Source: an uncultured delta proteobacterium | GTDB taxonomy: Bacteria > Desulfobacterota > Binatia > DP-6 | Direction: 5' to 3' | NCBI GenBank assembly: GCA_963815115.1 | Contig: CAWFFN010000005.1 | Coordinates: 1,280,001-1,344,000, forward strand | DNA length: 64,000 bases | In this document: positions 51,971 to 64,000 of the stretch, one piece after another | Layout: the number at the start of each line of letters is the position of its first letter | How positions within the stretch are numbered: the first letter of the stretch is position 1 | Notes under the pieces: generated by a model | What the model was told of the DNA's origin: nothing | Databases searched by the model: none | What the model saw: only the letters and a program-made list of their open reading frames with translations | Position numbers and translations under genes: made by a program

Positions 51971-52270
51971 CGAGCCGTCGCGCGTCATTTCCACACGCCA
52001 GCGCGCGAATCCCTCGAAACCCGGGGCCCGCGGGCTCGGGCGTCTCATCTTTCGCATGGCCGACGGGCCGGGGAGCATCCGCCTCGGGTTCCAGTGTCCG
52101 TCGGGTGACCGCCGCCCTGGCGCAGGGGGCGCGATCTGTAGTAGCGCCGAGCCGTGCGTGAGTTCCGTCGCCTCCGCCGACCTGGTCCGACTCAACCTGA
52201 CCGGCTCGTTCGCCGGCCGGTGCCTCGGGACCAACCACCGCACCAGGTCGCAGCTACGTTGACCGCATGC

Positions 52271-52894
52271 ATGCTCGGCCCCGACGAGCTGCGCCACATT
52301 GCGCGGGTGACGATCGGGAGCTACGACCGCCACGCCGACGGCTTCCGCGAGGGGACGAAGGACCACGACGTCAGCCAGAACGTGGACGCTCTGCTGTCGC
52401 GCCTCGACGGGCCGGGCCCGTTCGCGATCCTCGATCTCGGCTGTGGCCCCGGTCGCGATCTCGCGCGGTTTCGCGCCCTCGGCCACGAGGCCATCGGGCT
52501 CGACGGCGCGGCGCGCTTCGTCGCCATGGCGCGCGCCGACACCGGGTGCGAGGTGTGGCATCAGGACTTCCTGGCGCTCGACCTGCCGCCCGCGCGCTTC
52601 GACGGCATCTTCGCCAACGCCTCGCTCTTCCACGTCCCCGCGCAGGAGGTGCCGCGCGTCCTTCGCGAGCTCCAGGCGGCGCTCAGGCCGCGCGGCGTCC
52701 TCTTCGCGTCGAACCCGCACGGGCCCGACAGCGAGGGCTGGCAGGGCGAGCGCTACGGCGCCTGGCACGATCTCGCGACGTGGCGATGCCACGTGGCGGC
52801 GGCGGGCTTCGTCGAGCTCGACCATTACTACCGTCCGCCTGGACTGCCGCGCGGCCAGCAGCCCTGGCTCGCGACCGTGTGGCGGAAGGCCTGA
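52271..52894 (+). CDS. Class I SAM-dependent methyltransferase
   Basis: ILDLGCGPGRD, FDGIFANASLFHVP. Confidence 0.9.
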   Translation: MLGPDELRHIARVTIGSYDRHADGFREGTKDHDVSQNVDALLSRLDGPGPFAILDLGCGPGRDLARFRALGHEAIGLDGAARFVAMARADTGCEVWHQDFLALDLPPARFDGIFANASLFHVPAQEVPRVLRELQAALRPRGVLFASNPHGPDSEGWQGERYGAWHDLATWRCHVAAAGFVELDHYYRPPGLPRGQQPWLATVWRKA

Positions 52895-52920
52895 GCCGCG
52901 GCGAACGGCGAGCGTCCGAC

Positions 52921-53808
52921 GTGGCCCGGCTCCTCGACATCCTCGTGACACGGCATCCGGGCGCCTCGAAGCGCACGCTGCGGCAGATGCTGGCGCACGA
53001 GCGCGTCACCGTGGACGGCCGCACGGTCGTCCGCGCCGATGCGGAGATTCCGGAAGGCGCCCGGGTGGCCCTCGGGCGCAAGATGGTGGCCTCACCGGCG
53101 CCCGTCGCGGTCGACGTCGTCCATGAAGACCGCCATCTCCTCGTGATCGACAAGCCCGCCGGACTGCTCTCGGTGGCGTCGAGAGACGCCGGGCGAACGT
53201 CGGCATGGGCCGCCGTTCGCAGGTACCTTGCGGGCTCCGGCGAGGAGCCGTTCCTGGTTCACCGGCTGGACGAAGGTACCTCCGGGCTCCTCGTGTTCGC
53301 GAAGACGTCGGCCGTTCAGGAGTCGCTCCACGAGACGTTTGCGCGTCACGACGTCGAACGGGTCTATCTTGCGGTGGTCGACGGGCAGCCGGGCGCCGAC
53401 ACGGGTACCGTCGCGACCCGGCTGGTCGAATCCGATCGGCGTCCTTACAAGGTACGGAGCCTGCGCGGGGGTGATCCGCCGGAGGTCGCGAGCCGGGCCG
53501 AACGTGCCTGCACGCACTGGCAGGTGATCGGTCGCGATGGGGGCCGTGCGGCTCTCCTCGTCCGAGTCGAGACCGGCAAGAAGCATCAGATTCGCGTTCA
53601 CCTGTCGGACCTCGGCTGCCCGATCGTGGGCGACCGTGCCTACGGCGGCCCCGCCTTTCAGAGGCTCCTCCTGCATGCCGCGCTCCTGCGTTTCAGGCAC
53701 CCCGTGACCGGTGACCAGCTTCTGACCATCAGCCGGCCTGATCCCGCGTTCCGGCGCGCCTTTCCGGCGCTTCCGGACCCGCTGCCGCCGGGTTTCGGCG
53801 TCGAGTGA
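52921..53808 (+). CDS. RluA-family pseudouridine synthase
   Basis: IDKPAGL, VHRLDEGTSGL, TGKKHQIRVH, PIVGD..YG, LHA. Confidence 0.92.
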   Translation: MARLLDILVTRHPGASKRTLRQMLAHERVTVDGRTVVRADAEIPEGARVALGRKMVASPAPVAVDVVHEDRHLLVIDKPAGLLSVASRDAGRTSAWAAVRRYLAGSGEEPFLVHRLDEGTSGLLVFAKTSAVQESLHETFARHDVERVYLAVVDGQPGADTGTVATRLVESDRRPYKVRSLRGGDPPEVASRAERACTHWQVIGRDGGRAALLVRVETGKKHQIRVHLSDLGCPIVGDRAYGGPAFQRLLLHAALLRFRHPVTGDQLLTISRPDPAFRRAFPALPDPLPPGFGVE

Positions 53809-53850
53809 TCGGCCGAAGGAGCAGCCGGGGATCTTGCGTCCGACCGTCGC

Positions 53851-55264
53851 TCACGGGTGCGGGCGGATCGCGCCCGCCTGGGGCCAGTGCCCGAGCGCGT
53901 CGTAGGCGGCATATTTGTAGAGCTCGGAGAGGGTCGGATAGTTGAACACCATGCCGATCAAGGTCTCGACGGTGCCCTGGAGCGTCATGACGGCCTGGCC
54001 GATGTGCACGAGCTCCGTCGCGCGCTCGCCGATGCAATGGCAGCCGATGAGCATGCGGCTGGCCGGGTCGAAGACGAGCTTGATCATCCCGTCGCGGTCG
54101 CCCACGATCTGCCCGCGGGCGTTCTGCTGGTAGAAGGCTTTCCCCACCACGGGCACGTAGCCGGCGTCCCGCGCCGCCGATTCGCCGTAGCCGACGCAGG
54201 ACACCTCGGGAATGGTATAGATGCCGTACGGCAGCAGCTCGCCCAGCTGCCGCTTGTAGGGGAAGGCGAAGGCGCGGCAGACGGCGACACGGCCCTGGTC
54301 CATCGAGGTGGAGGCGAGGGCGGGGAAGCCGATGCAGTCTCCCGCGGCGAAGATGTTCGGGACGCTCGTCCGGTAGCTGGCGTCCACTTCCACGTAGTCG
54401 CGCTTGCCGACCTTCACACCGATCGCATCGAGGCCGAGCCCGCGGATGTTGCCGGAACGTCCGGCGGCGAACAGGAGCTGGTCGGACACCACCTCGCCAC
54501 CGCCCTTGAGCGTGGTGACGATGCCGCGACCGGGGACGCGGCGCACCCCCGACCAGGCATCGCCGAGGTGGGCGGTGACGCCGAGCCCGCTCATCGCCTT
54601 GAGGAGTCCCACACCGATGTCGTCGTCGAGGAACGGCAGGATGTGATCGCGCGGCTCGACCAGCTGGACGGGCACGCCGAGGGCCGCGAACATCGTGGCG
54701 TACTCGCAGCCGATGACACCGGCACCGAGGACCGTCAGCGAGCGCGGCATGCGATCGAAGTGCAGCACCGTGTCCGAGTCCTCGATGTCGGGGTCGCTGA
54801 AGTCGATGTCCGCGGGACGGTGGGGCACGGAGCCCGTGGCGATGAGGACCACGTCACCGGTGATGCGCTCCGCGTCCGTCCGGACGGACGACTTCGATCA
54901 CATGGGGATCGAGGAAGCGCGCGCGGCCGGCGACCATGGTGACGCCGTGGCGATCGAGGTTCGCGCGGATGCGCGCCACCTCGGCCCGTCGTACGGCGTC
55001 CTTCCGGCTGAGCAGCCGCGGGGCGGCGAGCTCGGGCGTGATCGCCACGCTGATGCCGTAGAGCTCGCGCTGATGGTAGCCGGAGAGATACACGCTGGTC
55101 TCGCGCAGCGTCTTCGACGGCAGGGTGCCCGTGTGCACCGCTGCGCCTCCGGGCTCGGCCTCGCACTCGACGACGGCCACCTTCTTCCCGAAGTAGGCTG
55201 CCTGCGCGGCGCCCTTCTCGCCGGCGGGGCCGCTGCCGATGACGATCAAGTCGAAGGCGGCGAT
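53851..55264 (-). pseudogene. sthA: Soluble pyridine nucleotide transhydrogenase, frameshifted near 54875, apparent start ATC
   Basis: GSGPAGEKGA, HTGTLPSKTLRE; second frame IATGS, GAGVIGCEYA, GFPALASTSMDQGR, FNYPTL. Confidence 0.88.
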
Positions 55265-55275
55265 GGTCCCGTCTC

Positions 55276-56199
55276 CTAGAAGGAGTAGCGCAGCGCGACG
55301 ACGACGTGCGCGGCGAGCAGCACGAGCAGGGCCGCCGTGAGCGGAACGTGCAGGAACAGCCAGCCGTGGAGCCAGTGGTGCAGCCGGCGCTGCACGGCGA
55401 GATCGCGGCGCTCGGCCGCGATGTCGGCGAGATCGCGCGCCGCCTCGTGCAGCGATTTGGGAAGCTCGCGGCAGAGCCCTTCGATGGTGCGAGCCGCCAC
55501 CGCGGCGTCCGCGAACGGTCCGCGCCGGCCGTCGCCACGCAGGAACGGGCGCACCATCTCCACGTAGAACCGCCGCAGGGGCTCGGAGCCCTCGGCCGGT
55601 GCGTCGGCGGGTCGGTAGGCCGCGACACGGCGGGCCATCTTGGGATCGGAATGGATGCGCTCGCTCTCCTTCCTCTCCTCTGCCGCCTCGGGAATCGGGC
55701 CGCACACGGCCGCCGCCGTCTCGTAGGCTTCGAGACCGAGCAGGCCGACCACGTGGGGAATCTGCTCGTAGACCGTCTCGCCGGGAGCCCACGCGGACAT
55801 CAAGCGCGGCACGAACTGCTGCAGCGCGAGGCCGTACACGCCCGAGACGATGACGGCGAAGGCGAGGAGGGAGAGGGCGAGGGCGAGCGTGCCCTGGAAG
55901 CGGAAGGCGCTATGGAAGCACACCAGGGGAACGATGAGGAGCCCGAGCCACACGTGTCCCTTGAGCCAGGTCTCGGCGCGCCCGATTCGCCACGTGGGCA
56001 GGCGCTTGCGGACGTTGAGCCCGACCTCGAACAGCATGAGCGTGGCGGCGGCGATGCCGAACCACAGGCCCGGCCCGCGCGACCAGGTCAGCTCGCGTCC
56101 GGCGCCGGGGCGCGAGCGTACGTAGCCGACCGTCGCCGCCGTGCCCAGGACCGCTGCGGCGACGATCCAGCGCCGCTGGCGAGCGTCAATCAGTGCCAT
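55276..56199 (-). CDS. Membrane protein with four His, ferric-reductase/cytochrome b-like
   Basis: WLKGHVWLG, CFHSAF, SGVYG, WLFLHVPL, AAHVV in hydrophobic helices. Confidence 0.75.
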   Translation of the reverse strand: MALIDARQRRWIVAAAVLGTAATVGYVRSRPGAGRELTWSRGPGLWFGIAAATLMLFEVGLNVRKRLPTWRIGRAETWLKGHVWLGLLIVPLVCFHSAFRFQGTLALALSLLAFAVIVSGVYGLALQQFVPRLMSAWAPGETVYEQIPHVVGLLGLEAYETAAAVCGPIPEAAEERKESERIHSDPKMARRVAAYRPADAPAEGSEPLRRFYVEMVRPFLRGDGRRGPFADAAVAARTIEGLCRELPKSLHEAARDLADIAAERRDLAVQRRLHHWLHGWLFLHVPLTAALLVLLAAHVVVALRYSF

Positions 56200-58445
56200 G
56201 CTTACCTGCGACTCCGATGGTGGTGGCGAAGAACTCGCGAGGGTTCTCCACCCGCACCGCCGCGCCGTGGGGGCATGCCACCACGCAGCTCGGGTCCTGG
56301 TCCGGAGCGAGGTTCTTGCAGAGATCGCAGGCGGTTGCCTTCTTCTCGCGTGCCACGGCCTTGCGAGGTCCCGGGCGCTGGCGATCGTCGCCCTTCACAT
56401 CGAACTCGTGCATGCTGATGTTGCCATACGGGCAGTTGTCCGCGCACACGCCGCAGCCGACGCACCAGTTCTCGATGTATATCTCGAGCGTGTCTCGACG
56501 CCGGATCGATCCCACGGGGCATCCCACCATGCACAGCGGGTCGCGGCACTGTCGGCAGGACGTGGCGACGAGGTAGTTGTCGTAGCGCAGTCCCTCGCGG
56601 ATGAGCCGCGTCACGCCGTCGTGGGCCGTGGCACACGCTTGCACGCAGAGGTCGCAGCGCGTGCAGCGGTCGAGGTCGAGCACGAGGAGGCTCTGGGCCT
56701 CCATGAGCCCTTGCTGGAGAAAATCTTCGAGCTCGACGTTGCTGGTCGTGGCGGCGATCAGGCGGTTCTCCCCGGCGCGCCGCTCGGCCTCGGCGACGAG
56801 CCGGTCCTTCACCGCGGGGAGAGTGCTCGAGCATCGTCCAGAAGTCGTCGGCAGCGATGCGTACGACATCGACATGGTCGACGGCGATGCAGCTCGCGTT
56901 CCGCGGCTTGTCGAGCAGCAGGCCCATCTCCCCGAAGAAACCGCCGCGCCCGTGGTAGGCGCGTACCAGCTCGCCCCCGGGGAGTCCCACGACGACCTTC
57001 ACGAAGCCGAGGCGCACCAGGTAGAAGGCATCGGCCGGGTCGCCCTGCTTGAAGATGGCCTGGCCCGGCTCGAAGCTCTTCAGCGTGACGCGCTTGCCCA
57101 GGTCGTGGATGAAATCGGCGTCGAGGTCCGCCAGGCACCAGACTCCGCGCAGATGCGTCGCGATGGTGCGGTTGCGGTAGCGGGCGTCGACCTGCGCAGC
57201 GAAGGCCTTCGAGCGACGAAGCAGCTGGAGCACGGGACGCAGCATCTCCAGCACGACGGTGTCTTTCGTGGCCGTCACCGTGGCCGAGCGGGGGTAGAAG
57301 TTGAGGCACGTCATCTCTCCGAAGAGCTCACCGGGGGGGAGTCGGGCCACCGGCTCCGCACGCAACAAGTCTACGGGGGCGTCGATCGGAATCGTGGCGC
57401 CTGGGGCCTCGTCGTCATCCTCTCGGCCGAGCATGCTCCTCATCCCGAGCGCGAACCGCCGGAGCATCCCGGGGCCGGTGCGGTTGTGCACGCGGGACTG
57501 GGTCGTGGAGATGCTCACCTCGACCTCGCCCTCGAGGATGAAGAACGCGGTTGAGCCGAAGTCGCCCTCCTTGCAGATGGGCTCGTCGTCCCTGGGGCTC
57601 AGCCGTCGACGGACCACTGCGCCCTCGTTCTTGCCGATGGGACCGAGCGCCTTCTCGAGGAAGCGGGGGGCTATGCCCTCGAATAGCCGGGTGCCGTCGG
57701 GCCAGCGCAGGCCGAGCAGTACCTCCGCGCCGACCGGCTCGCCGGGGATCCTTGCGTCACCGAACCCCTTGTTCGTGAGCGCGCCGGTCGGGCAGGACAC
57801 CATGCACTCCCCGCACGACACGCAGGTCGACTCGCCCATGACCTGGCCCGCGTCGAACGTGATCACGGTGGCGTTGCCCTTGCCGGCGCGTCCGATGACG
57901 TTGTTGTGCGCGACGTCCGTGCACGCGCGCACGCAGCGGTCGCACACGATGCACGCCGCGTGGTCGACGGCGATGTTCGGGTGCGAGTCGTCGTGCGGCG
58001 TCCAGCCTGCGATCGGCGGCCGCTTGGGCGGTCCGGGGCGGTAGCGGTCGGGCAGGGCACCCAGCTCGCGCGCCTTCGCCTCGAGCTCGCAGTCGTTCGT
58101 CTCCCGCTCCCGGGCGCACGGGGAAGGATGATCGGCCATCAGCAGCTCGACGAGCGTGCGCCGGACCCTTTGCACCTCCTCGCTGCCGGTGGAGATCACC
58201 ATACCCGCCGACAGCTCGCGCGCGCAGGCTGCCGCCATGACGTTCTCGCGCGCGAGCTTGCCGTCGCGCGGAACGCGCACCTCGACGCAGCACACCCGGC
58301 AGACGCCGGCCGGCTGCTGCGGTGGCAGGTGGCATACCGTCGGGATCGTGATCCCGAGCGTCTGGGCGGCATCGAAGATCGTCGTGCCGGGGGGGACCTT
58401 CACCACCCGGCCGTCGATCGTCGCCTCGATGGGCTGGTCGCTCAC
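56186..58445 (-). pseudogene. Fusion: NuoG/FdhF-like Fe-S module + two cNMP-binding domains + 4x[4Fe-4S] ferredoxin; frameshift near 56818
   Basis: IPTVCH..GVCRVC..AAC; CIVCDRCVRAC; CVSCGECMVSCP; FGEM..PRSA, FGEM..PRNA; CTRCDLCVQAC, CRQCRDPLCMVGCP, CVGCGVCADNCP, CDLC..CVVACP. Confidence 0.85.
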
Positions 58446-60179
58446 GCCGCTCCTCCGGCGGCCGCCAGCGCCGGCCGCATCGGACACGTGCCCGCCGGGC
58501 AGCGGCTTTCCTGGAGGTGGGCGTTCACCTCGTCCTCGAAGTGCTGCATCATGGACGTGACCGGTGCCGGCACCACCTGACCGAGTCCGCAGATCGAGGT
58601 CTGACGGAGCGTCAGGGCGAGGTCGCCGACCACCGCGAGCCCCGCGGCTCCTGCGCGACCCTCGGTCACCGCTTCCAGCAGGTGGACGATCTTCTCCGAG
58701 CCCACGCGGCAGGGCCAGCACTTGCCGCACGACTCGCGCGCGAAGAAGCGCGCGATGTTGAGTGCGAGGTCGACCATGCAGCGGCCCTCCGCCACGGCGA
58801 CGATGGCGCACGATCCCACCATCGAGCCCTGCTTGGCGAGCGCGCCCCACTCCATGGGCGTATCGGCGAGGTGTGCCGGCAAGAAGCCCGACGAGGCCCC
58901 GGACGGCACCACGGCCTTGAGCTTGCGGCCGCCGCGCACCCCGCCGCCCCAGCGCTCGATGATCTCGCGCAGCGTGGTGCCGAAGGGCACCTCGTAGACC
59001 CCGGGCCGCTCGACGTCGCCGCTCAGCCCGACGAACTTGTAGCCTGCGGCGTCCGCCGTGCCGAGGGCGCGATACCAGCTGGCGCCGCGCAGCACGATCG
59101 ACGGCACGTGCGCCAGCGTCTCCACGTTGTTGACGACGGTCGGCATGTCGAAGAGGCCGTGGAAGACCGGGATGGAGGGCTTCAGCCGGGGCTGGCCTCG
59201 CTTCCCCTCGAGCGCCTCGAGCAGCGCCGTCTCCTCGCCGCAGATGTAGCCGCCGGGGCTGACGAAGATCTCGAGATCGAAGGCGAAGTCGGAGCCGAGC
59301 ATCCGCTGGCCGAGCGCACCCTCGGCCTGGGCGAGCTTGATGGCGCGGTGCAGCGCCTCGGCTTCCCGGGCATACTCGTGGCGGATGTAGATGATGCCCT
59401 GGCGCGCGCCGCTCACGACGCCGGCGATGGCCATGCCCTCGATCAGCAGATGCGGCGCCCAGGTGATGATGCCGCGGTCCTTGATGGTGGCGGGCTCGCT
59501 CTCGTCGGCATTGCAGACGATGTATTTCCGCGTCACCTGCTGGTCGCGGACCGTTCGCCACTTCCTCACGGCCAGAAAGCCGGCGCCTCCCATGCCCTTC
59601 AGCTGCGCCGTCTCGAGCTCGGCGAGCACCGCGTCGGCGCCGCTGTCGAGGACGCGGCGCAACGCGGCCCAGCGCTGGTGCTGCCCGTCGGCGTACGGGT
59701 CGGCGTGCTGGATCGCGACTGCGGGCGACGATGCGGCCTCCGGGAGCGCCTCGTTGTCGCGCAGGGCACGGATGAGCACGTCCATCCCACCGGCATCCAG
59801 GCGCCAGTAGGGTGCGTCGTTCACGGTGAGCGCGGGTGCGCCGTCGCACCGTCCGAGACAGGAGACGCGCTCGACGGTCACCTCGCCGGCTGGCCGCGCT
59901 CGCGCCGGCGGCCTCGACGTCGTGGAGGAGCGACTCCGCCCCGCGAAGACGGCACGAGAGATCGGTGCACACCCGGACGTCTCGTGTCGGCGGCGGCGCG
60001 AGGCGGAAGTGCGGGTAGAAGGTCGCGACGCCGTGCAGGCGGTAGATGGGGACGTCCAGCTCCGCGGCCAGGGCACGCAGCGTGGCGGGCGTCAGGTAAT
60101 CGCCGTTCCGGCGTTGCGCCTCCTCGAGCGCCTCCATCAGGTGCGCGTCGGTCAGGCGAGCGTCCGGAGCCTCTACCAT
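58442..60179 (-). pseudogene. NuoE+NuoF-like fused NAD(P)H diaphorase; frameshift near 59900
   Basis: VATFY, VCTDLSC, SCLGRC; GMGGAGF, NADESEP..KDR, YICGEETALL, ESCGKCWPCR..ICGLG. Confidence 0.88.
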
Positions 60180-60242
60180 CTGATCAGATATCCCTACCCC
60201 GTTTCCTAGAACACCAGCCCGTTCCCTGACAAGTCGATGCTC

Positions 60243-61679
60243 CTAGTTGCCACGAGTGAGTCCCTGGATATCGAAACGTCCATTCATCTCGTCGGGCCCG
60301 ATCGCCGCGTGGTAGGTGTGGCACTCGGAGCAGGCCGTCCCCGCGCTGCCCGGGCGGTGGCATCGTGCGCAGATATCGCGGCCCGGCAGCAGGAGGTCCG
60401 CCGTGTCCCTGCTCTCCTTCGCGTTGGCGTGGCAGGCGAGGCACCCGAGCTGACGATGGACACCATGATCGAAACGGCTCTGGGGGAACCAGCGGATTGG
60501 GACTCGAGTCGGCGCCACGCTCGGGAGGCCCGAGTCGGGGGCGGCGATCATGGTATGGCATTGCTTGCAGTAGCAGGACTCGCTGAAGAGCACGCGCTCG
60601 GCGGTCGCGACTCGCTCGGCGATCCAGGCGTCTCGGTCCGGCGCACTGCGCGCGGTCGCTCCGCCTGGGAACGGCCGCGGCCTGGGCGTGCCGCGAAGTT
60701 CGCCGGGATGTCGGGCGATGTAGTCGGCGTAGAGGCCCTTCAGGAAGGTGTGGACCACGGCAGGCGTATCGTGGGGGACGACGATGCTGGGGGGAAAGCG
60801 ATCGTCGGCGAACGTATTCGGGTGACACGCGGCACAGTGCTGGGCGTAGCGCACGGGCGCCATGTAGGGAGTGGTCTCGGCCGGAGCGAGCTCGGGTTTG
60901 ACCGGCGGTGCCCACCCCGCGGGCAGCTTGCCGAAGAGCGGAGTCGCCATGGACGTCGTCCCCCAGTGGCAGTTTCCGCAAACGAGCTGCACCCGGAAGT
61001 TGTTCTCGGGCCCGACGAAGTTGGCGGTGAGGTGGGTGGCGTGGTTCAGCTTGAGCTGCGCCATGTCGCGGGGCGCTGGCACGTCATCGAGTGCTTCGCG
61101 GTGCGGGTGCTCGGGGTCTCCCGTCCACACGGCGAACTCGGGGTGCAACGCGTTGTCCCGGGTCGCGAAAGCATGGATCTTCTGCGCGTCCCCTCGCAGC
61201 ACGAAGGCCGGCGGGCCCTTGGTGTGCTGCGGCAGGTCGGCGTGGCAATCGGTGCACGCAGCCGTCGAGACGGCGGAGAGGTTCGGGGCGGCGCGATGCT
61301 CGGTGTGGCAGGTCGCACACGGCGGCGTGGAGTCCTGGTTCGGGTGGTGAACCGGCACGTCGTGGCACGTCTGGCACGCCGCGTCGGTGGCACGCCGGAA
61401 ATGCGGCGGCTCGGCGTCGGTGGCGGTCCCGTGTGCGAGGTCGCGAGCCGCGATGTGGCACGCGGCGCAGTCCTCCTCGTACATCGCGTGCGCTCTCGCG
61501 AGACGGCCCGGAGACGCAGGGTGGGCACGTCCGCCGAGCATCGGTGCGATCCAGAGCGCGGCGGCGGCGAGTGCAGCGAGCGTCAGCCACACCCGCAGGC
61601 TGCGAAACCAGTGCCGGCGCAGGTAGTAGTCTCGCTCGATGCGCTGGGCGCGAAGCTTCGCTTTGCGCTGGCGGGCCAT
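60243..61679 (-). CDS. Membrane-anchored decaheme cytochrome c
   Basis: Ten CxxCH motifs counted; N-terminal basic stretch plus hydrophobic helix; SPGRLARAH, FDHGVH. Confidence 0.9.
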   Translation of the reverse strand: MARQRKAKLRAQRIERDYYLRRHWFRSLRVWLTLAALAAAALWIAPMLGGRAHPASPGRLARAHAMYEEDCAACHIAARDLAHGTATDAEPPHFRRATDAACQTCHDVPVHHPNQDSTPPCATCHTEHRAAPNLSAVSTAACTDCHADLPQHTKGPPAFVLRGDAQKIHAFATRDNALHPEFAVWTGDPEHPHREALDDVPAPRDMAQLKLNHATHLTANFVGPENNFRVQLVCGNCHWGTTSMATPLFGKLPAGWAPPVKPELAPAETTPYMAPVRYAQHCAACHPNTFADDRFPPSIVVPHDTPAVVHTFLKGLYADYIARHPGELRGTPRPRPFPGGATARSAPDRDAWIAERVATAERVLFSESCYCKQCHTMIAAPDSGLPSVAPTRVPIRWFPQSRFDHGVHRQLGCLACHANAKESRDTADLLLPGRDICARCHRPGSAGTACSECHTYHAAIGPDEMNGRFDIQGLTRGN

Positions 61680-61688
61680 GCCGGCTTC

Positions 61689-63442
61689 TCAGCGGGTCGT
61701 CGGGCGGCGGGGAAACTTGACGAAGGGAAGGCGCACGTTCCGGACCTTCACGCGATCGGAGCGCATGTCCGCGGGCGGCCGGAATCCGCGGCCGGCGGCG
61801 AAGGAGATGATGTCGTCCTGATCGACGCCGTCGCCGCTCACCCCGGCACCCCCGATGAGCCTCCGACCTCGGTAGAGGGGTACGCTGCCGGGGAAGATCT
61901 GGATGCCATTGCCGATGCCGGGGATGGTGCTGCACGGCGATACGATCAGTCCCACCGTCAGGAGCATGACAAGGGCGCCCGAACACGAGGTCGATCTGCA
62001 GCCCGTCATTGAAAATGCTGAAGTCGCCGATGGGCACCGAGAAGGGACCGTGGAAGGTCCCGTCGATTCCGTCCGGGAAGAACGGACGGCTGAGGAATCC
62101 GCCTGCCCGGTCGCTGAAGGCGACGCTGCCGTCGAGGTCGATGCCCTCGCGACGCGCCGCTTCAACGAATTGGTCGAGATTGATTGAGGAGTCGGACGCT
62201 GCTGCGCAGTCGAGCACCCGCCTGCGAGCTGCTGAAGAACGCCGCCGTACGGCCCTTCTGCGCTGAGACGTCGAACCCGAACGTCGGGGCGTCCTGCGTG
62301 CGGAAGATGCCGAGTATGTTTCCGGCTCGGTCGACGATCGTGATGTTGACGCGCGCCCGGTCGCCCAGGGGCCGGCGGATGCCGGCTCGCGTGCGGTTCG
62401 CCTGGTGGGCGCCTTGCTTCAGCAAGCGCTGCACCTGCGCGGCCGTGAGCCCCGGCCCGGGCGGCGGATCGATGCTGTCGCGGGGTGGGTAGTAGCGCGG
62501 GTCGACGGTCCCCTTCACGCCACCCAGGGTAGCCGGAACGAATCGGCTTGGCGGCGTATCGATCGGAGCGACGTCCCCCGGACCGAAGGTGACCGTGGCC
62601 GCGGGAACGATCGGTGTCTCATCGAGATTCGAGAACGGGAAGCGGAGGCCGTTCACCAGGATCTGGTCGCCGCGGATGAAGGCCGGTGCCTCGTACCCGC
62701 GCGTCGCCGCCACCGCGATGCGTTCCTCGTCGGTCACCTCGAGATCGGTCGGGTTGCGATCCACCGTGTAGCGCCCGTTCCCCTCCACCCCGACACCACC
62801 GGCGGCTCGCCCATTCTTGTACAGCGGGAGGCCGCCCGGGTCGGCCGAGAGGCCGAGCGGCAGCGTTCCAGCCGGCAGTGGCAGCAGCGGCGGAGGTAGC
62901 GTGACCCCGGGCCGCGGGATGACATCGCCGCACGGCAGCTGGGAGAACTGCACGCCGAAGAGCGGGCCGCTCGACGTGTTCCGGATCAGGGGCGGAAAAT
63001 GTTGCTGGATGATGAAGCCGGCCGTCCGAGTCGTGAACGCGTTGCCCTGGGTGCTGAAGAAAGCTGCCGTGCCCCCCTTCGAGAGCGCCGCCAGCATGGC
63101 GAAGTTGACCTGGCACACCGGTGGCCCGGGCGGCGGTATGTCCGGAAAGCATGGGGGTTGAGGGGGCAGGGTCGTTCCGTCGAGCCCCTGTGGGTTCTTG
63201 GCGCCACCGTCGATCCTGATGGACTGATCCGCCCCGTCCATCACGTGCGTCCCCAGCACGTTCCCCTCGCGGTCGAGCACCGCGATGTTGACGGGTAGTC
63301 CGACGCGCTGCGCCTCGCTCACCGCCTGGCCGATGACGCGCGTGACGTCCGCGGCCGTCAGCGTCTGAGACGCCGCGGGCGCGGTCAGCGCCACGGCACC
63401 GGCCAAGCACGCGCCGGTCAGCGTCGGCAGCCGAGCCCGCAC
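61689..63442 (-). pseudogene. Secreted tandem GlcG/HbpS-like heme-binding protein, frameshifts near 62185 and 61978
   Basis: IAVLDREGNVLG, ADPGGLPLYKNG..GGVGV; ITIVDRAGNILG, VSAQKGRTA; FPGSVPLY..GGAGVSGDGVDQDD spread over three frames. Confidence 0.82.
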
Positions 63443-63526
63443 GCGGGCTTGCTTAGCGAATGTGGACCGAACACGCAAGATTTGGTATGCGCGCCCGACA
63501 TTCACGACGAATCTGGAGACCCAGGT

Positions 63527-64000
63527 ACGAAGCTCGTCCACGCACTGGCGCTGGCCTTCGTCGCACTCGCGCTCGCCGCTCCGGTGTGGGCGGAGCCGCA
63601 GGACGCAGGCAATGCCACGCCGCGGCGCCGCCCCCTGCCTTCGCCGCCCGAGCCTCCCCCCGCCGTCGAGCCGGGGCCGCCCGTGGAGAACACCGAGGAG
63701 CCGACCGGCTACACCGGTCCGCCGGCGCCGCCGGAGACGTTCCCGGCGGAGGAAGAGGTGGACTCCCGGAACCGCTGGCGCGTGGGCTTGCCCTTCTACA
63801 ATCGCCAGCCCGACAACATCCACGAGGCGCCGCTGGTCCGCGGGCAGTGGTGGGATCCGTACGACCAGAACGTGCTGAAGGGCGACTACCCGGTCTTCGG
63901 CACCCAGAACACCTTCTTCGCCTTCACCCTGCGCAGCGACACGCTGCTCGAAGGCCGGCGCCTGCCGACGCCGAGCGACGTCAGCTCGGCCCGGCCCGGG
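63527..64000 (+). CDS. Exported, probably outer-membrane protein (3' end outside window; apparent start ACG, alternative TTG 63482)
   Basis: Open frame KLVHALALAFVALALAAPVWA (signal peptide), Pro-rich linker, NRWR..WWDPYDQNVLKGDYP..EGRRLPTP. Confidence 0.7.

Follow-up and report, generated by a model that had tools for sequence, protein, structure and literature searches.

A candidate signal-gated electron conduit from NAD(P)H to a periplasmic decahaem cytochrome in uncultured bacteria

NADH-oxidising modules composed of NuoE-like, NuoF and NuoG-N/HoxU-like domains, in this order, are found in respiratory complex I (NuoEFG) and in the bidirectional hydrogenases (HoxEFU). In NOX, STEAP, MsrQ/Fre and CybB, NAD(P)H electrons cross a membrane over two b haems held by two pairs of histidines on two helices, and cytochromes b and ferric-reductase domains carry two stacked haems on histidines spaced 14 residues apart. 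FdnHI and NarHI have a 16-cysteine, four-cluster subunit beside a membrane protein with two stacked b haems. MtrCAB and Pcc conduits comprise a periplasmic decahaem cytochrome and an outer-membrane barrel paired with a large multi-haem protein, flavin-based extracellular electron transfer (EET) in Listeria has a dedicated NADH-oxidising entry point, and the mycobacterial cAMP-dependent acetyltransferase Pat carries canonical-cassette cyclic nucleotide monophosphate (cNMP)-binding domains fused to its effector. Here, we describe a gene cluster that shares these respective features with each of the above systems, its b haems and its outer-membrane barrel being putative. The cluster lies in a 64,000-nucleotide stretch of DNA from an uncultured member of the Binatia, hereafter the window (positions 1280001-1344000 of contig C5 of the source genome, G000, an assembly of 12 contigs, 6.89 Mb and about 70% G+C).

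At 53851-63442, six tightly packed or overlapping minus-strand genes encode an SthA-like transhydrogenase, an inner-membrane protein, a fusion of iron-sulphur (Fe-S) and cNMP-binding domains, a NuoE-NuoF fusion flavoprotein (NuoEF), a decahaem cytochrome c and a GlcG-like protein; a divergent gene for an exported protein (p627) starts at about 63482. This arrangement, proposed in the original prediction, is confirmed by open reading frames (ORFs), Pfam matches, translations and the frame plot. With moderate confidence, we read the cluster as a signal-gated chain that exports NAD(P)H electrons to the periplasm with no obvious quinone step. The direct results are domain content, cofactor motifs, co-conservation and a predicted interface between cytochrome and membrane protein, from which we infer haem b binding, the outward direction of flow, cNMP gating and the final acceptor.

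Co-conservation of the cluster across genomes

A scan of one genome per species found the membrane protein encoded in 268 species genomes, and all locus counts below refer to the best 80 of these 268 loci. The 80 loci come without exception from metagenome-assembled genomes, labelled mostly as Acidobacteriota, then Planctomycetota, Binatia, Rokubacteria, Wallbacteria and a few others. Presence was called by tblastn at a query cover of at least 50%, and was counted a second time by clustering, without bias, the 6883 ORFs that these loci hold. The cNMP-binding part and the C-terminal 4x[4Fe-4S] part of the Fe-S fusion are each encoded adjacent to the membrane protein in 78/80 loci, the two misses being a 2.6-kb contig and the locus L078 (see below). 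The decahaem cytochrome is present in 72/80 loci by tblastn (67/73 where the contig extends at least 1.5 kb downstream) and in 75/80 by clustering, and its gene usually begins 10-130 nt past the membrane-protein gene. NuoF is found in 57/80 loci (53 of the 69 with at least 4.5 kb of upstream DNA), the HoxU-like part in 57/80 and NuoE in 54/80. Other genes occur in fewer loci, namely: GlcG (25/80), SthA (22/80) and, within 10 kb, a CHASE2 cyclase (19/80), the multi-haem protein p1295 (17/80; range 17-19) and p627 (9/80). Clustering gives the same ranking as tblastn (membrane protein 80, Fe-S fusion 78, cytochrome 75, NuoEF 57), and adds a divergent 4-haem c554/MtrC-like cytochrome in 55/80 loci and FecR in 18/80.

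The sensor/Fe-S protein, the membrane protein and the decahaem cytochrome thus make up the conserved core, and about three quarters of the loci also have the NADH module. A chance gene neighbourhood is ruled out, since the cluster's genes are found side by side in dozens of genomes from other phyla, and the association of the genes assumed in the original prediction holds beyond the source genome. In L033, for instance, the cNMP/Fe-S protein, the membrane protein, the decahaem cytochrome, a double GlcG protein, p627 and p1295 are encoded in one co-directional row. Closer to the source genome, full-length orthologues at 67-69% identity occur in three same-family genomes (G008, G020 and G023) among 40 relatives, while among 301 genomes sampled evenly across the phylum G000 alone has a full-length membrane-protein match.

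The chain had also been drawn without a hydrogenase or molybdopterin subunit, and this stands. A hydrogenase or molybdenum enzyme just past position 64000 is ruled out by the genes read there, and no family of either kind is present among the recurrent clusters of the 80 loci whose representatives were scanned.

A separate observation concerns L078, a 6.6-kb contig labelled Actinobacteria, in which NuoE and NuoF matches lie directly upstream of the membrane-protein gene. No cNMP/Fe-S protein is found there at the thresholds used, and L078 may be a shortened form of the system.

Cofactor-bearing domains and the proposed electron route

NuoEF matches Complex1_51K (PF01512, E 2.3e-41), NADH_4Fe-4S (PF10589, E 1.8e-25) and SLBB, while its match to 2Fe-2S_thioredx (PF01257) is split over two frames (60 and 31 bits). 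The motifs GMGGAGF, NADESEPAT, YICGEETAL and ESCGKCWPCR, known from NuoF for flavin mononucleotide (FMN), NADH and the N3 cluster, are readable in it. The intact G020 orthologue scores 442.3 bits and does not reach the cut-off of the complex I NuoF equivalog (TIGR01959, 558.65); by sequence, NuoEF is a NuoF-family paralogue and not a complex I subunit. The N-terminus of the Fe-S fusion is HoxU/NuoG-N-like, with [2Fe-2S] and [4Fe-4S] domains: it matches Fer2_4 (PF13510, 52.9 bits), NADH-G_4Fe-4S_3 and Fer4, scores above the cut-offs of PF12838, PF22117 and PF00037 and matches PF10588 weakly. With a score of 156.9 it does not reach the HoxU equivalog cut-off of 333, its NuoG-like NCBIfam match is likewise below the cut-off, and it is a member at the domain level only. 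Its C-terminus holds 16 cysteines in four groups, the DmsB-type 4x[4Fe-4S] pattern; all are present in the window's piece, and the four groups are likewise found in three orthologues. This domain also stays below family level (PF13247, 23.9 bits vs. 26.2; DmsB TIGR02951, 38.3 vs. 214.1).

The AlphaFold2 model of the membrane protein (predicted local distance difference test, pLDDT, of 92) has five long predicted membrane helices and a helical cytoplasmic domain of about 145 amino acids (residues 129-272). Six histidines (H82, H96, H274, H278, H284 and H298) are invariant in 52 sequences of many phyla, as would be expected of the His-pair membrane protein that had been proposed. Four of them form the pairs H82/H96 and H284/H298, each 14 residues apart, on predicted helices 75-96 and 248-306. 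In the predicted topology, oriented by the positive-inside rule, H82 and H284 would lie near the cytoplasm and H96 and H298 near the periplasm. We propose that the protein is a putative di-haem b transmembrane wire. Searched with a profile, it has 4518 cluster representatives as relatives at E <= 0.001, of which 757 pass E <= 1e-30; the 120 best relatives are all hypothetical or unnamed, and Pfam gives no informative domain on ten long relatives (396-883 amino acids). Sub-threshold Pfam matches recur among the 52 relatives, namely: DUF4405 (PF14358; 16/52), Ferric_reduct (PF01794; 13/52) and Ni_hydr_CYTB (PF01292; 13/52), and the window's protein itself scores 16.5 bits for PF01794 (gathering threshold 28) and 10.6 for PF01292 (30.1).

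Several results count against this assignment. The membrane protein reaches no Pfam or NCBIfam family threshold, and Foldseek against the PDB gives no match to its model at E <= 0.001. In a VIA structure search, CybB (5oc0; Z 8.0, root-mean-square deviation 3.1, 131 residues aligned) and STEAP4 (6hcy; Z 7.5, root-mean-square deviation 4.5, 152 aligned) both fall within helical-bundle noise. Because no family threshold is passed and no clear structural match exists, it is the histidine pattern alone that leads us to propose haem b.

In the decahaem cytochrome, a conserved, basic N-terminus in the cytoplasm is followed by a single membrane helix and by the haem domain in the periplasm; the protein matches the Pfam families Cytochrome_C7, Paired_CXXCH_1 and Cytochrom_c3_2. 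In 47 sequences, all ten CxxCH motifs and nine further histidines (H64, H128, H179, H213, H216, H303, H405, H408 and H457) are invariant and H111 is nearly so, a pattern consistent with bis-histidine electron-transfer haems. The membrane protein and the cytochrome were predicted as a complex together with two haems, from custom alignments and with a riding ligand. The complex scores 0.62 (0.61-0.62 in three runs) vs. 0.00 for the best of three controls. A mark of 0.62 is reached by 116/157 solved complexes and by 2/215 mismatched pairs, a calibration that is only rough for a run with such alignments and ligand, which weighs against the interface. The runs share at least 60% of their contacts, and the partner has a pLDDT of at least 73. 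In the predicted complex, the membrane helix of the cytochrome (28-47) lies against the last helix (281-307) of the membrane protein, whose periplasmic loops 35-40 and 102-106 contact the first haem motif (C71, H75) beside the outer histidine pair. This model supports a direct step from haem b to haem c, with the first haem of the cytochrome where the His-bearing helix reaches the periplasm.

The same data bear on a different reading, namely that NuoEF, the Fe-S fusion and the membrane protein act together as a cNMP-regulated NADH:quinone oxidoreductase that does not pump, the di-haem b protein being the quinone reductase, while the cytochrome is a separate quinol-oxidising or periplasmic carrier that shares the operon. 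Four-cluster ferredoxin subunits normally dock on quinone-reactive anchors, and the C-terminal four-group cysteine pattern is that of such subunits (DmsB/FdnH), which makes a quinone site possible and weighs against a quinone-free chain. The weak Ni_hydr_CYTB and DUF4405 matches are to families that include quinone-reactive cytochromes b, and CybB, the closest of the weak structural neighbours, is a cytochrome b561 that reacts with quinone. However, the cytochrome gene directly follows the membrane-protein gene in most loci, and the complex prediction (0.62 vs. 0.00) places the first haem at the periplasmic end of the His-bearing helix. In addition, the decahaem cytochrome has no NapC/NirT-type match in Pfam or NCBIfam, and no quinone-site motif came up, though no search aimed at one was made. 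We therefore regard the quinone oxidoreductase as rather unlikely, and retain the chain from haem b to haem c as the preferred reading.

The sensor region of the Fe-S fusion scores 118.4 bits for cNMP_binding (PF00027; cut-off 27.5), with two domains, and is also matched by the Pat and CRP models of NCBIfam. The phosphate-binding cassette of cNMP domains, Gly-Glu ... Arg-Ser/Thr-Ala, reads FGEM..PRSA and FGEM..PRNA in the window, and a regular expression for this cassette finds it in 75/78 orthologues for domain 1 and in 67/78 for domain 2. In 23/80 loci, under at least four phylum labels, a class III cyclase domain is encoded no more than 10 kb away, and 19 of these have CHASE2. In the source genome, a CHASE2 cyclase and a FecR-like protein are encoded about 5 kb past the window, and in G023 a kinase/cyclase-like gene adjoins the cytochrome gene (NCBIfam). 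Furthermore, there are variants with an FHA domain (L061, 3728-5656) or a PilZ domain (L093, 8085-9998) inside or beside the second cNMP domain, the cNMP match there being truncated. Since different signal-receiver domains are exchangeable at this one position, we argue that the position regulates the Fe-S domain; the variants with PilZ or FHA might respond to c-di-GMP or to a phospho-threonine partner instead. The cyclic-nucleotide link of the original prediction is thus strengthened by the conserved cassettes, the cyclases near 23/80 loci and the FHA and PilZ variants. Outward electron flow, for which both redox and the membrane potential would be driving forces, would dissipate the latter, and the chain would therefore need switching. 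A more specific idea, which we put forward tentatively and hold to be possible but doubtful, is a second-messenger electron valve in which binding of cAMP or cGMP at the sensor cassette within the Fe-S wire would physically join the NADH module to, or part it from, a quinone-free haem b/multi-haem c path to the cell surface.

Two sets of nearby genes are recorded here as separate observations. The CHASE2 class III cyclase gene is followed by the FecR-like gene at L001:16757-19777 (window-equivalent 69757-72777), and this pair recurs beside the decahaem cytochrome gene in Acidobacteriota loci (cyclase 19-20, FecR 18). About 13 kb past the window (L097:4311-7237, i.e. G000:C5:1357311-1360237), a gene for a c554/MtrC-like 4-haem cytochrome adjoins one for an MscS-type channel with a C-terminal cNMP-binding domain; the family of this cytochrome is the one encoded divergently next to the operon in 55/80 other loci.

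On the NAD(P)H side, the G023 SthA orthologue passes the NCBIfam SthA equivalog NF003585 (539.8 bits vs. a cut-off of 465), and the two frame pieces of the window's SthA are 71.5-71.7% identical to it. The GlcG/HbpS-like protein matches PF03928 with 52.5 bits (cut-off 25) in two stretches on its N-terminal piece, and the intact L033 orthologue does so with 72.7 bits, also in two stretches. Its start is likely the GTG at 63442, after which a signal-peptide-like sequence follows, and among solved structures EfgA, a protein of the GlcG family, is closest to it in sequence (E 1.2e-08).

Beyond the end of the window, in locus L001, p627 is followed by p1295 (L001:12332-16219), an exported protein of 1295 amino acids that carries LVIVD propeller repeats, nine CxxCH motifs and, in addition, a conserved CX4CH motif (C152...C157-H158), and then by a 251-amino-acid cNMP-binding protein, the CHASE2 class III nucleotide cyclase and the FecR-like protein. 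p1295 is 48-57% identical across phyla over about 1250 residues, which is unusually high for a surface-type protein. p627 has at least 4394 relatives, none of them functionally named and some with an N-terminal CarboxypepD_reg domain. Among 13 listed homologous ORFs, the full-length ones end in Y or F in 12/12 cases, and the nearest named Atlas cluster is Alginate_exp (feature score 0.96). Weak matches to the alginate-export family PF13372 occur in 4/49 p627 relatives (best E 6.5e-05) and none in the window's copy; the amphipathic-strand count (15 segments vs. 11.1 +/- 2.5 in shuffles) is without discrimination.

The aromatic C-termini, the CarboxypepD_reg domains and the Alginate_exp matches are suggestive, on a weak basis, of p627 being an outer-membrane beta-barrel, and the chain probably continues to such an outer-membrane module. 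The case against is that p627 and p1295 are near so few of the loci, and that p627 relatives far outnumber those of the core; the two may form an independent system. Sequence searches against solved structures found nothing for p627 or p1295, and none of the MtrA, MtrB and MtrC families passes for the decahaem cytochrome, p627 or p1295. A sub-threshold MtrC/MtrF domain match (23.4 bits vs. 30) lies on the divergent 4-haem cytochrome of L060.

Taken together, the proposed route would be as follows. SthA would shift NADPH electrons into NADH, which would be oxidised at the FMN of the NuoE-NuoF fusion. The electrons would then cross the HoxU-like Fe-S domain and pass the two cNMP-binding domains to the C-terminal four-cluster ferredoxin domain, which would dock at the cytoplasmic face of the five-helix membrane protein holding two b haems between its histidine pairs. 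From the outer b haem they would reach the first haem of the membrane-anchored periplasmic decahaem cytochrome, and from there an external or periplasmic oxidant, probably through the p627 barrel paired with the 9-10-haem p1295. Cyclic nucleotide from the neighbouring CHASE2 cyclase would bind both sensor domains and switch the Fe-S wire on or off. The sequence NAD(P)H - FMN - Fe-S - haem b - haem c is that of the original prediction, and it is supported by domain content, by the invariant histidines and CxxCH motifs and by co-conservation. It should be noted that 16 of the 69 loci with enough upstream DNA have neither NuoEF nor the HoxU-like domain. NADH is thus not the universal donor, and in such loci the core may take its electrons from another carrier.

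The direction of flow could also be the reverse, such that an external or periplasmic donor (Fe(II), reduced humics or H2-derived carriers) feeds electrons through the cytochromes and the b haems to NAD+, with SthA passing them on to NADP+. NuoEF/HoxFU modules are reversible. One source (10.1101/2022.05.06.490989) discusses, for Tenderiales, a role in electron uptake of multi-haem proteins with propellers and outer-membrane components. On bioenergetic grounds, however, inward electrons would oppose the membrane potential and NAD+ reduction would need a donor of about -320 mV, and the co-conserved genes include no hydrogenase, formate dehydrogenase or other low-potential oxidase. Electron import is thus very unlikely in our view, and electron export remains the direction that we prefer.

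Broken reading frames in the source genome

At about 70% G+C wrong frames stay open, and genes were therefore called using the frame plot of G+C at third codon positions (GC3), three-frame translations and Pfam on each piece. After the frame repair and Pfam run advised in the original prediction, all six gene identities hold, and five single-base frame changes are located in four genes: SthA, the Fe-S fusion, NuoEF and GlcG, the last being broken twice. The features and the lengths of their intact forms are collected in Table 1. The stop of the Fe-S fusion overlaps the start of the membrane-protein gene by 14 nt, the NuoEF stop (58442) overlaps the Fe-S fusion start (58445), and a gap of 9 nt separates the GlcG stop from the cytochrome start. 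A listed ORF of 1325 amino acids (56202-60179) is not a real fusion, as its residues 95-580 and its tail are wrong-frame text. Upstream of sthA lies a pseudouridine synthase gene (Pfam); in the RluA-type ORF 52267-53808 (+) the S4 domain comes after about 220 residues with no family match, and this long N-terminus may be an over-called start.

Table 1. Genes of the cluster in the window (positions in the window; lengths in amino acids).
Feature	Position	Strand	Length	Basis
SthA-like soluble NAD(P) transhydrogenase	53851..~55290	-	466 in intact orthologue	Pfam Pyr_redox_2, Pyr_redox_dim and Pyr_redox on both frame pieces
Inner-membrane protein, intact	55276..56199	-	307 (~307 in intact orthologues)	Conserved His pairs, alignments, AlphaFold2 model
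Fe-S/cNMP/cNMP/Fe-S fusion	56186..58445	-	710-746 in intact orthologues	Pfam, NCBIfam, Cys groups
NuoE-NuoF (HoxF-like) fusion flavoprotein	58442..60179	-	578 in intact orthologues	Pfam
Decahaem cytochrome c, intact	60243..61679	-	478	Ten CxxCH motifs, N-terminal membrane helix, Pfam
Exported double GlcG/HbpS-like protein	61689..63442	-	~556 in intact orthologue	Pfam HbpS-like on two ORF pieces
p627, divergent exported protein, 5' part in window	63482..64000 (ends at window-equivalent 65332)	+	~616	ORFs, start scan; no Pfam family

In SthA, the frame changes at 54873-54890 through one extra base, which leaves a C-terminal piece of 333 amino acids at 53851-54852 and an N-terminal part at 54854-~55290; the split is shown by tblastn with the intact G023 orthologue and by DNA alignment. 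The Fe-S fusion has one extra base in a C-run at 56815-56818 (split tblastn match with the G020 orthologue at residue 533, and DNA alignment). In NuoEF, the extra base, at about 59893-59899, splits the NuoE-like [2Fe-2S] domain into two halves (tblastn, DNA alignment), and the GlcG gene is shifted at 62175-62207 and 61913-62041, with three frames in tblastn with the intact L033 orthologue. G000 thus has one extra base at each of the three sites that were aligned as DNA (SthA, Fe-S fusion and NuoEF), and by tblastn all five shifts run in the same direction.

Two explanations compete for these shifts, namely: errors in the assembly consensus, or real decay of the operon into a pseudogene cluster, in which case the five shifts and a missing sthA start would be genuine and the system would not work in this organism. 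A genome-wide phase-switch scan of G000 gave at least 127 candidates in which the reading frame changes on one strand although the frame left behind has no stop. The direction is +1 in 94/127, and 45/122 gaps between the candidates are shorter than 5 kb vs. 8.8% expected, i.e. they are clustered. RND transporter genes provide an example, with 4 of about 14 broken (by 1, 3, 3 and at least 5 shifts) and the rest reading through. Clustered, mostly +1 shifts in unrelated genes fit consensus errors better than independent decay. Likewise, none of the cofactor motifs checked is damaged in any frame piece, and GC3 stays at the coding level through all of the pieces.

The evidence on the side of decay also speaks against a working system in G000. 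The five shifts fall in about 7.2 kb of four genes, compared with none in about 8.2 kb of neighbouring genes. A start-codon scan (window 55249-55300) found no ATG, GTG or TTG upstream of the Rossmann motif of SthA, and this start-less stretch is matched exactly by a contig from short-read soil-metagenome data (55236-55626). The system is absent from all four same-genus genomes, which makes loss plausible in the lineage. A sequencing-run search gave four soil-metagenome DNA runs (shares 0.17, 0.06, 0.05 and 0.00) and no RNA run. Among the read contigs listed, the exactly matching pieces over 53800-63900 bridge none of the five frameshift sites, and the sole nearby indel in the read contigs, at 56784 in one low-depth contig, is away from these sites.

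On balance, we consider it probable that the five operon frameshifts are assembly consensus errors, and genuine decay unlikely. In the living organism, the operon is accordingly probably unbroken.

Frameshift hot spots also exist elsewhere in G000, at C9:640-643 kb, C9:1450-1456 kb, C8:837-843 kb and C12:678-692 kb, and in two of them RND transporter genes are cut into 4-6 pieces. This suggests regional assembly consensus errors, which would affect any gene call in those regions. A further oddity is found in G008, in which the membrane-protein gene, like sthA here, lacks a canonical start codon at a place where orthologues have ATG, and reads ATC (L016:3310-3330).

Significance and comparison with known systems

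If the proposed chain is correct, a widespread respiratory or redox-balancing device, named by no annotation, would be present in 268 species genomes and would link NADH directly to periplasmic, possibly extracellular, multi-haem cytochromes. This would bear on how abundant uncultured soil bacteria handle iron, manganese and humic matter, and would add a new haem b membrane family with clear mutational targets. It would also be the first electron-transfer chain with a second-messenger sensor inside the wire, and as such usable in switchable bio-electronic circuits. Should the valve be real as well, soil bacteria of many phyla could shed excess reducing power onto external acceptors on command, and the cluster would represent the first allosterically gated biological electron wire together with a new route of EET. 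The original prediction knew of no characterised system of this make-up. In agreement with it, a full-text literature search, with subscription papers and supplements outside its scope, found no description of the gene set and no report of an electron transfer protein controlled by cNMP domains.

With the NuoF, HoxU, DmsB and haem b thresholds unreached, the resemblances to known systems are, judged from sequence, likenesses of working and not memberships. Compared with NuoEFG and HoxEFU, the cluster is below the equivalog cut-offs and comes without quinone-module, pumping or hydrogenase subunits. In addition, its NuoE and NuoF parts are fused, and its HoxU-like domain is fused to two cNMP sensors and a four-cluster ferredoxin. 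NOX, STEAP, MsrQ/Fre and CybB differ from it at both ends of the membrane step: the donor in the cluster would be an Fe-S protein instead of a flavin domain, and the acceptor a multi-haem cytochrome instead of O2, a metal chelate or MsrP. The membrane protein itself, with five helices and a cytoplasmic domain of 145 amino acids, remains below the thresholds of these families.

Unlike FdnHI and NarHI, the cluster has no molybdopterin subunit, its Fe-S protein is cytoplasmic and lacks a twin-arginine translocation (Tat) signal, and the far end of its membrane protein would face a cytochrome c and not a quinone site. With respect to MtrCAB, Pcc and the EET of Listeria, its entry would bypass the CymA/quinol or demethylmenaquinone step. 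Its outer cytochrome also differs from those of MtrCAB and Pcc by an LVIVD propeller, and the outer module is adjacent in a minority of loci. Finally, whereas the cNMP domains of Pat are fused to an acetyltransferase, the effector in the cluster would be an Fe-S electron wire. The system thus resembles known kinds of electron-transfer system in its modules, and the integrated sensor cassette is its most original feature.

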